From NCBI RefSeq assembly GCF_050920415.1, contig NZ_CP169310.1: a DNA stretch of 64,000 bases; one strand, 5' to 3'. This DNA is from Escherichia coli. Lineage in GTDB: Bacteria; Pseudomonadota; Gammaproteobacteria; Enterobacterales; Enterobacteriaceae. Made by a program: the position numbers. Positions 9,001 through 12,000 of this stretch are shown piece by piece; the first letter of the stretch is position 1, and every line of letters starts with the position of its first letter.

Positions 9001-12000
9001 ATCTGAAATTATCCAGCCTGAACTGAAGAACACGGTGGTGCGGAGTCCGGAGAGTAACGGAACAACAGAAAGCTTAGTGAAAACGATAAAGCGTGACTAC
9101 ATCAGTATCATGCCCAAACCTGACGGGTTAACCGCAGCAAAGAACCTTGCAGGGGCGTTCGGGAATGATAACGAATGGCATCCTCATAGTGTGATGGGTT
9201 ATCGCTCGCCACGGGAATATCTGAGGCAGCGGACCAGTAATGAATTAAGTGATAACAGGTGCCTGGAAATACAGGGGAAAATCCACAGAAAAACATTTAT
9301 TCTGTTGTCTTGTTATGTTTTAAAAACGCATGTTACCATCTGTGTTGCCCGGAAGCTGTTTCTGAATTATTGTCTGGTGATTTAATATGAAGCGTTTTTT
9401 TGTAAAAAACAAATATAAAGAAATTGATGATGAGTTTTCTGATGGAGAGCTCATTTTTGGTATTGCCATTATCATAAAAGAAATACAGCTCCATCTGATT
9501 AAGCGCAGAAACTATCAGTATATCATTCAGGCTGATTTAACAAATGATGTATGGAGTTACGCGGATACCCGATTTGCCGTAAAAAACACAAATAACAGGT
9601 CCGTGGGGTTTTTAAATTACATATCAATGCACGACAGATATAATGTCTCTGTATTGTTTATTTCAAACACATTCAAAAACAGAGTTAATGTATTTAAAAA
9701 AACAAGCAAGTGTGGACTTGAATATCAGTTGCTTGTACTGAGAAAAAAAGTGCATTTTTTTATTGATGGTCTTGATTTATCCTCTGTTGCCAGTAAAACC
9801 GATGGACACGGAAGAAGTGTTACAGCAAGTGAGTTGCGATGGTTATACAGACACCGGTACATGCCAGATGTACGAAATAATCTTATCTTCTGGAAGAATT
9901 ACAAAAAACTATCTCAGGAGGATGTCTTTTCGTTGTCCCTGTGGCAGACATATTGTCCGAAAAAAATTTATCAATAGGGGCATCGACAGGGGTTTTTAAT
10001 AAACGGAAACCCGGAAAAGAAAATCATGAACTGCTCCTCTGTCGATGACGTTCAGTAGTGCTAAGTATCAAAAGAGAACGGGATAAAAAACACTCCTGAC
10101 ATGGTTTACCAGATTTCATCTTTACCACGACAGATACAGGTTGTCAGCTTATCTTCAATACCGGTGTTACTAAAAAACGATAGTGACCATAGATTACGTT
10201 TTTCGGGTAAACTCCGGTTACCGTCCTGAATCACCAGCACTGACAATGGTGTGAGAGCGGGTGTTTGTCACTATTATTTATGAGTCAGTAAGTCAGAAAA
10301 AACGTTGGCAGTGGGGACGTTAAGAAGAAATAACTTCGCAGATGTTTGTATAACGTGAAAATGTTGCACGCAACGTATTAAATCTGCCGTACTTCGCCTC
10401 AATGTTCAGTGCGGCAGATATACAAATGAATTCAGCTTTAAGGTTTCAGCTCACAAATCTTAGGGTTTAATATTGTATCTTGTTGAATAATGTTGTATTA
10501 AATGAATATAAATACTAAGGACTCATTATTCTGACTGAATCATTCCTTACCCCCTCTGTATGCTCTCAGAGGGCTTTTTTTATTTCCGGAATAAATAATA
10601 AAATAAAGATGCGATTCCGGCACCACCATTTACATCATTACCCCTGACATACAGTACCAGAATCGCATTAATGCATGTTACAAGTTTTGTTTTTTCATGT
10701 CCAGAATAATGGGGGGAAGCTTCTGTTGCGAAATAATATGCAAATCATGTCTTCTGGTGTTTGTTTTTTAACTTATTGTCTTACTGGTGCTTTGCTTATA
10801 GTGACTGATAACTCTTCGGTTTGTTATGAGTATAAAAAACCCCTGGTAACACAGGGGCAAGAGAACAAATGAATGCTCAGTGTATGTTGCACTTTAAACT
10901 AATCGAACTATAGAGGAGGTTGTTACATTTCCACTTATAAATCACCCACTCCTTTTTTGCAATAGATTAATATTAATTGTGAAAACTTTGTGATATTGAT
11001 CAGGGTATTTTTAGTTATTTATTGACCATGTACTCTGCCATAGTTTCTGCGTATCAACTGATAAGAGATAAGTTTTTTGTGTTTTTATTAAAAATGTGAT
11101 CCATCTTGCAAAAAAATAATCGTATAAACATGATGGGGTTAATGGGTAAATGTATATGTCTTTAAAGTATTGTGCAGATGGTTATTCTTGTTTCTGTTTG
11201 ATCGAATGGTTGTTTTGTCTGGTGTGAGTTTGTTGATGCGTATTAATTATACGCCAGGAACTTAAGTTAAGTATTGAAATCAGTGGACTGTACGGTTAAA
11301 TTTTTGTTTCAGCGTAGCTGATTCATCGTTATTCGAATATGACCAACGCACCTGTAATTGTTGTTTCTCTTGGAGCCCCCCACTTTTTGTGGGGATTTTT
11401 TTATTCCGTGTGTCGTTAAAAGGATACGCCCGGAAAACGTAATTGTTCCACATAAGAATAATTAATCTGAGCAAGTTATTTCATCCTGTCTTGTACAGAA
11501 CGTTCCACCACATATTGCGATTTTTATTCTCACGTAAAATATATTCTGCTGGTTTCAGTAATTCGGGAGATTTATGAGGCCTTTTACTGTTGTACAGTAC
11601 CGGGGGCGTATTTTCATGGAAGGAAATCACTCAATAACCGATCTCCTTCACGGTAATACGCATGAACAACAGAGAAAAAACAAAGATAGCTGATGCCCTG
11701 AGACAAACATATCCCCTGACAGAATTACTGCATGTTCTGGGCCTTGCCCGTAGCAGTTATTTTTATCACCGGGCTGCACTGAAAGCCGGTGATAAATACG
11801 CCACGATACGTACGATGCTGACAGATATCTTTAACAGTAATTACCAGTGTTATGGCTATCGTCGCCTGCATGCGATGCTCAGGCATGAGGGGGTTCGGCT
11901 ATCAGAAAAGGTTGTACGCAGACTTATGGTGGAGGAACAGCTTGTCGTCAGCCGTAACCGTCGTCGCCGCTACAGCTCATATTGCGGAGAAATCGGACCG

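Follow-up and report, generated by a model that had tools for sequence, protein, structure and literature searches.

A thrice-repeated AT-rich plasmid module of Escherichia coli reads as a candidate cluster of small RNA genes with relatives on Col156 plasmids

Comparison of an unannotated, AT-rich module that occurs three times in a 64,000-nucleotide stretch of Escherichia coli contig NZ_CP169310.1 (the window, by which we mean this whole stretch) with its relatives on small plasmids points to clustered, plasmid-borne genes for small regulatory RNAs that are subject to purifying selection, a reading on which we ourselves are about evenly divided. Self-BLAST and a repeat search of the window confirmed the copies reported in the original prediction, and placed full copies at 10138-11505 (copy A, plus strand), 33946-35253 (copy B, plus strand) and 50230-48840 (copy C, inverted and thus on the minus strand), with a decayed, partial copy of approximately 80% identity at 43849-44221 (copy D, minus strand). 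By self-BLAST, copies B and C are 92.5% and 92.8% identical to copy A and 98% identical to one another, corresponding to differences of approximately 7% from copy A and of 2% between B and C. The GC content of the module is 0.34-0.40. Every promoter and terminator element is intact in copies A, B and C, and copy D retains a terminator (T1) and a perfect 17/17 hairpin, both described below with copy A coordinates. RefSeq, PLSDB and other public records hold no annotation under any module copy, and the counterpart of copy A in NZ_CP012500.1, at 100% identity, is likewise without annotation.

A sensitive DNA search found that positions 10266-11419 of the module are approximately 70% identical to an unannotated 1.15-kb stretch of 5.16-kb Col156 (ColE2-like) mobilizable plasmids, and alignment with one of these plasmids, L008, delimits the same positions as the Col156-homologous core of copy A. 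In PLSDB, 306 records match the module; 288 of these matches have 60-80% identity, almost all being plasmids of approximately 5.16 kb typed as Col156 and MOBQ. Approximately 290 plasmids of 5.15-5.17 kb carry the Col156-type relative, with E. coli, Shigella and Klebsiella as hosts. Among 5426 complete E. coli genomes, 328 (approximately 6%) have a relative of the module; all 410 places at which it occurs are plasmid-borne, and no chromosomal relative was found. The 1.15-kb cassette makes up 22% of the small replicon and is 99-100% identical across hundreds of 5-kb plasmids. A conserved 19-mer, used to scan metagenomes, recovered 65 true loci, which include variants approximately 90% identical to L008, an intermediate lineage (L029) and a 7.4-kb plasmid type. 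In a one-genome-per-species scan the only hits were a plasmid contig of Escherichia and two short contigs, assigned to Streptococcus and Moraxella and taken to be contaminants, and no new lineage emerged. A phage collection and viral contigs held no match. Literature searches, including Col156 together with small RNA (sRNA) and exact sequence strings, found no description of the cassette.

The position of the cassette on the small plasmids is well defined. Col156 relatives encode a ColE2-type Rep protein (PF03090 and PF08708), MobA, MobC and two small hypothetical proteins, and sister Col156 plasmids of the pSSE3 type carry a colicin-immunity-lysis operon (PMC6856555). The backbones of L008 and pSSE3 are collinear except for one slot (L008 3220-4798 versus pSSE3 2714-5132), which holds a 69-amino-acid open reading frame (ORF) and the AT-rich cassette in L008, and the colicin operon in pSSE3. 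Homology breaks at L008 3220 and 4798, and therefore the cassette replaces the colicin operon exactly. In the 7.4-kb plasmids an arsR-like gene and a gene for a flavin adenine dinucleotide (FAD)-dependent oxidoreductase are inserted within the cassette, between the hairpin and a T-rich region (L011, CP056633.1, at 4436-7462; likewise L012, L041 and L042). The first sub-module is retained to one side of the insert and both small-RNA regions to the other, so that the cassette doubles as a site for the insertion of cargo.

Alignment of these lineages allowed us to ask which parts of the module are kept. Between-clade identity (window-type versus Col156-type) ranges along the module from 0.93, in the body of a candidate 97-nucleotide RNA, down to 0.07 at 11044-11073. 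Columns that are identical between the clades are approximately half as polymorphic within either clade (odds ratios 0.46, p = 9e-6, and 0.43, p = 6e-8), which speaks for constraint more than for shared recent ancestry, and each clade independently shows this strong heterogeneity of rates. What lineages with only 65-70% identity have in common are promoter hexamers (with diverged spacers), terminators and near-invariant unstructured blocks, a pattern that favors the sRNA locus listed as one alternative in the original prediction. The three conserved hairpins that it had described are present where it had placed them, and a scan of the module found 5 terminator-like sites versus 0.7 expected. 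Four predicted promoters keep their register from clade to clade. Three units (P2 with its hairpin, P3 with T3, and P4 with T4) have the layout of sRNA genes, in that each has a predicted promoter of its own and a predicted intrinsic terminator, 50-400 nucleotides apart on one strand and conserved between the clades and in copies A, B and C. The other marks of such genes, an absence of coding potential and purifying selection on the sequence, are also found.

The first of these units lies in sub-module 1 (10264-10672). Promoter P2 is predicted on the minus strand at 10675-10703 (TGGACA-17-TAACAT, predicted start at approximately 10668), with hexamers identical in window-type and Col156-type lineages and a spacer that differs. 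It would drive a candidate minus-strand RNA of approximately 370 nucleotides (10297-10668) that opens with a 17-bp hairpin (10609-10668, minus strand) and runs to a terminator of the form CCCCC..GGGGG-U6, intact in the Col156 types and weakened in the window copies. The hairpin has a loop of approximately 29 nucleotides with a conserved motif, UAUGUCAGGGAUAAUG. Its Alifold energy is -24.5 kcal/mol on the minus strand versus -10.1 on the plus strand, its single-sequence z-score is -5.1, and 93% of cells are paired, with one AU-to-GC double change and several pairs that swap GU with GC or UA. Support for the hairpin is conservation and strand asymmetry, because the shuffle control for covariation was non-significant (52/500). 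Sub-module 1 as a whole also folds better on the minus strand (z of -8.2 versus -4.35 on the plus strand), and the consensus structure of the long RNA has helices with GU pairs. On the plus strand, a candidate short RNA (10483-10581) would start from a promoter-like sequence, TTGAAT-18-TATAAA, at 10483-10512, which was read from the alignment as weaker evidence and lies 40 nucleotides upstream of terminator T1 (10552-10581). T1 has a T7 run in every lineage and one CG-to-UA compensatory change. The predicted units are convergent and overlap within 10297-10668. The short RNA would be antisense to the long one and may act on it as an antisense partner, and the two together look like a cis-antisense pair or a leader.

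The second unit contains the block that is best conserved in the module. Promoter P3, predicted on the minus strand at 10934-10962 (TTGCAA-17-TATAAG; TTGAAA-17-TATAAA with a diverged spacer in Col156), would drive a candidate sRNA of approximately 97 nucleotides (10830-10927, minus strand) whose 5′ part (GUAACAACCUCC...GUUUAAAGUG) would be unstructured and whose terminator is at 10834-10857. The body of this RNA has a between-clade identity of 0.87-0.93, and its terminator is present in all lineages. The second hairpin of the original prediction (10840-10857) does exist, with the correction that its T-run is on the minus strand and makes it a minus-strand terminator. A third unit was found by scan. 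Promoter P4 (TTGAAA-17-TAAATT, predicted at 11274-11302 on the plus strand), whose hexamers are kept and whose spacer has diverged in four lineages, would drive a divergent RNA of approximately 93 nucleotides (11309-11402, plus strand) ending at terminator T4 (11376-11402), also found by scan. Both RNAs are predicted to leave their 5′ region open and to form a terminator hairpin after it. With a conserved single-stranded CU-rich seed and such a hairpin, they look like trans-acting, Hfq-type sRNAs, and the near-invariant CU-rich 5′ end of the 97-nucleotide RNA (AACAACCUCC) would pair in trans with the ribosome-binding sites of target mRNAs, as Hfq-dependent sRNAs do; the 93-nucleotide RNA has the same build.

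Upstream of P3 are two sites that resemble those of CRP. The first, TGTGATATTGATCAGG at 10989-11004, is centered approximately 69-70 bp upstream of the predicted P3 start and contains the first of a pair of GATC sites; its TTTGTGAT..T..TCA is kept in the window-type, Col156-type and 7.4-kb-type lineages. The second, TGTGATCCATCTTGCA (TGCGATTTATCTCACA in copies B and C) at 11095-11110, lies approximately 100 bp further on and contains the second GATC. TGTGA-N6-TCA is conserved in all lineages at approximately -69.5 from the predicted P3 start, in a site whose right half is imperfect and of a kind for which chance matches are common. The pair of GATC sites had been compared with a Dam/Lrp-controlled fimbrial switch. 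Copy A does have GATC at 10998 and 11098, as well as a third at 11200, and such a pair, spaced by 100 bp in AT-rich DNA with a regulatory look, recalls pap-type phase switches. However, the second and third sites are lost in copies B and C, the Col156 types have no GATC at these positions, and no fimbrial operon is attached in the window; a fimbrial switch was accordingly rejected. The conserved items are the TGTGA-N6-TCA motifs that contain the GATCs, and the comparison makes the GATC sites accidents inside two CRP-like motifs. The closest analogy for the P3 unit is CyaR, a CRP-controlled, Hfq-dependent sRNA. Much like CyaR, it would be approximately 90-100 nucleotides long and have its own sigma-70 promoter downstream of a CRP-type site. 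Its conserved CU-rich (CCUCC) 5′ segment is predicted to be unstructured and would suit Shine-Dalgarno pairing, and its 3′ end would be a Rho-independent terminator. Unlike CyaR, it belongs to a plasmid-borne module and is clustered with other units, the roles of CRP and Hfq are predicted ones, and there is no sequence similarity, the Rfam CyaR model giving no match to the module.

The absence of a conserved protein gene bears on both this reading and its competitors. On neither strand is there an ORF of at least 8 codons whose start, frame and stop are all preserved from the window clade to the Col156 clade, except for trivial by-products of invariant DNA. NCBIfam gave no match for ten small candidate ORF peptides and Pfam none for the 69-amino-acid protein, and the Rfam search of the module, proposed earlier as a check, recognized no family at gathering thresholds and gave only chance-level hits at E-values up to 10. 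No tRNA or transfer-messenger RNA (tmRNA) was found in the module, and inspection by eye gave no convincing LexA boxes. As far as this comparison reaches, the module is protein-free and holds no conserved ORF.

One possible explanation that depends on such a gene is a type I toxin-antitoxin locus, in which a small hydrophobic peptide is checked by an overlapping antisense RNA, and for which a Cys-rich ORF at 10747-10872 (plus strand) had been suggested as a Hok-like toxin. Much like hok/sok loci, the module is plasmid-borne and AT-rich with predicted structured RNAs, and it may also have overlapping antisense transcripts, those of sub-module 1 being convergent; hydrophobic small ORFs do exist on the T-rich strand. 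The ORF itself was correctly described, with 41 amino acids in copy A, 37 in copy C and a frameshift in copy B. It has 37 amino acids in the related plasmid locus L005 as well, and it is also frameshifted in L004, so that the frame is broken in 2 of 5 close copies, by indels in a T-run. It falls in a poorly conserved T-rich stretch with between-clade identity of 0.30-0.43, has no counterpart in the Col156 types, and we judge it to be no gene. The hydrophobic ORFs of L008 fare similarly, as they are interrupted by stop codons in L021, a locus 90% identical to L008. Unlike hok/sok, the module thus has neither a conserved toxin ORF nor an Rfam or NCBIfam match, and the toxin-antitoxin explanation, largely refuted by the comparison, is highly improbable.

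Another explanation is cis-regulatory. Here the minus-strand RNA would be a long 5′ leader with an attenuator and antisense control for a downstream gene, which in Col156 would be the 69-amino-acid ORF, and the window copies would be orphaned regulatory remnants. Indeed, in the 5.16-kb and 7.4-kb Col156 plasmids sub-module 1 is always beside the start of the 69-amino-acid gene, the Col156-type terminator lies approximately 70 nucleotides before that gene on the minus strand, and the arsR-like gene of the 7.4-kb plasmids reads into the hairpin. However, the window copies lack the 69-amino-acid gene and have no conserved ORF to the left, where copies A and C differ by a 2-nucleotide indel, and the window nonetheless retains all elements in three copies. 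The 97- and 93-nucleotide units, with promoters and terminators of their own, are left unexplained by a leader, which we consider unlikely as an account of the whole. The module could instead be a functionless relic, made of leftover promoters and terminators of lost genes, whose apparent conservation comes from a few related lineages. The small number of independent lineages, the decay seen in copy D, L004 and the window terminator, and a surrounding plasmid full of pseudogenes all fit a relic, but the strong rate heterogeneity found independently in both clades, the near-identity of 22% of the replicon in hundreds of 5-kb plasmids and the retention of three complete copies in an IS-ridden region (IS, insertion sequence) make it improbable. 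An element that works as DNA has also to be considered, either as single-strand initiation (ssi) or primosome assembly hairpins used after mobilization, or as an AT-rich region bound by nucleoid proteins. The module is found on plasmids only and is AT-rich, and a strand-specific hairpin with G-T pairs would also fit single-stranded DNA; ssi signals have reportedly been found on ColE2-type plasmids. Nevertheless, T-runs directly after GC stems, correctly oriented in every lineage, are a hallmark of transcription terminators, the conserved promoter hexamers are correctly spaced, and it is not obvious why a large conjugative IncF plasmid would need the element in triplicate, which renders an element of this kind quite improbable.

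Several observations weigh against the cluster of small RNA genes itself. The promoters are consensus matches in AT-rich DNA, and promoter-like sites number 3 in the module versus 6.0 in shuffles. Covariation is sparse, being limited in the hairpin to the one compensatory pair with its non-significant control, and the 97- and 93-nucleotide RNAs are essentially without it. Individual copies show decay: copy D is degraded, the 3′ arm of the hairpin is lost in L004, and the window clade has lost part of the long-RNA terminator (10297-10321), the 3′ arm of which is 5 nucleotides short. A duplex scan of the candidate RNAs against Col156 gene starts was uninformative and predicted no target. Finally, there are approximately 3-5 independent lineages only, some of which were gathered with an exact 19-mer, so that the apparent invariance of that anchor block is partly by construction.

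If the sRNA reading holds, unannotated sRNA genes would be added to plasmid annotation, and the cassette may be an unrecognized cargo of common cryptic plasmids; if the RNAs are not expressed, the module is merely a well-conserved relic. Col156-type 5.16-kb plasmids are among the commonest small E. coli plasmids and are called cryptic, having no known cargo gene. A conserved RNA cassette taking up 22% of the replicon would give a testable reason for their persistence. Three copies of the same cassette stand amid the toxin genes of hybrid virulence plasmids of the Shiga toxin-producing and enterotoxigenic E. coli (STEC/ETEC) kind. We therefore put forward, as a possibility that we hold to be doubtful, that the cassette is an RNA-only cargo module that took the place of the colicin operon, with a selectable function exerted by reprogramming gene expression in the host or in competitors, possibly tied to CRP and catabolite control. 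Such cargo would provide a selectable function for the widespread cryptic Col156 plasmids and, in triple dose, for STEC/ETEC virulence plasmids. The cassette occupies exactly the position of the colicin operon of ColE2/Col156 (MOBQ4) plasmids (PMC6856555; pSSE3), with the mob genes on one side and the cer-like/rep region on the other, but it has no protein gene and resembles the colicin, immunity and lysis genes neither in DNA nor in protein sequence. A decayed colicin operon was accordingly rejected as its origin, neither those proteins nor the DNA of the colicin slot showing similarity to the module. The cer site of ColE1-type plasmids with its Rcd RNA is a comparable case of a non-coding plasmid region giving a small regulatory RNA, which in the module is predicted; unlike cer/Rcd, the cassette does not include the XerCD core of its Col156 plasmid, which is found at L008 4983-5010 (GGTACGTACAACGGGAGTTATGGTAAAT).

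The two versions of the module also meet in one host. The strains Escherichia sp. 10290 and HH091_1A each carry a large plasmid with the window-type module and a 5.16-kb Col156 plasmid with the 70%-identical version (NZ_AP025742/AP025745 and NZ_AP025748/AP025750), and therefore the two versions co-reside.

The window is nearly identical to the 225-kb IncF plasmid pCFSAN004180G (NZ_CP012500.1) and to related plasmids of Escherichia isolates from food, cattle and humans. It contains the ehx operon together with two sta1 enterotoxin genes and numerous IS fragments, in a plasmid rich in pseudogenes. The claim that the module is not part of an IS stood up, as the copies were carried by IS-mediated rearrangement and the module itself is no IS. 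An IS2 end abuts copy B on its left border, and the left end of an IS3 follows copy C, to its right, at approximately 48750. Because the edges of copies B and C are these IS2 and IS3 ends, the module copies are evidently passengers of IS-mediated rearrangement and not a mobile element themselves. A 15-nucleotide inverted repeat with one mismatch (left arm 10193-10207, ATTACGTTTTTCGGG; right arm 11429-11443, CCCGGAAAACGTAAT) flanks the core of the module in the window clade and suggested a miniature inverted-repeat transposable element (MITE) or an IS. This was rejected, as the ends of the copies differ, do not match the repeat and are set by the IS2 and IS3 ends, and no transposase ORF was found in the module. 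A co-integrated small plasmid was rejected as well, since neither proteins nor DNA of the Col156 backbone have left remnants in the window.

Copies B (33946-35253) and C (48876-50186) form a 98% inverted repeat flanking a 13.6-kb segment with IS1414, a gentisate degradation operon, a LysR regulator and the partial copy D, and homologous recombination between them could invert this segment. Two identical sta1 genes for heat-stable enterotoxin STa (32639-32857 and 51714-51932, plus strand) lie within direct repeats of approximately 2.2 kb (31506-33738 and 50454-52814) that adjoin copies B and C. On the left of copy A is a 196-amino-acid hypothetical ORF (9387-9977, plus strand) that has an NCBIfam match to the C-terminal region of the type III effectors EspK/GogB (E = 1e-26, far under the curated cutoff) and looks like a truncated effector-like gene; this region is also found to the left of the module in L004. 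To the right of copy A, 13288-13854 (minus strand) encodes a 188-amino-acid protein with a YopT-type cysteine protease domain and a weak TIGR01586 match, and a second, 93% identical copy at approximately 47903-48572 (minus strand) is broken, with only a 51-amino-acid ORF left. Copy C was considered as the upstream region of this YopT-like gene and rejected, as the left end of IS3 lies in between and that gene copy is broken.

Elsewhere, a fragment of NZ_CP147062.1 (L006, 3713-4101) matches window positions 9975-10380 at 83% overall and at 92% over 10200-10380, thus spanning the spacer and the first 115 nucleotides of the module core, and it precedes tssB of a plasmid-borne type VI secretion cluster by approximately 500 bp. 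Relative to pCFSAN004180G, the window is different over its first 2.1 kb (1-2138) and has an additional segment of approximately 2.1 kb (15175-17300), and it contains an 87% inverted repeat (16805-17307 versus 21241-21743). Metabolic operons are also present on this virulence plasmid, with gentisate/3-hydroxybenzoate degradation genes, a major facilitator superfamily (MFS) transporter and a LysR regulator at approximately 37790-43815, and a full fdnGHI formate dehydrogenase-N operon at approximately 55929-60525.

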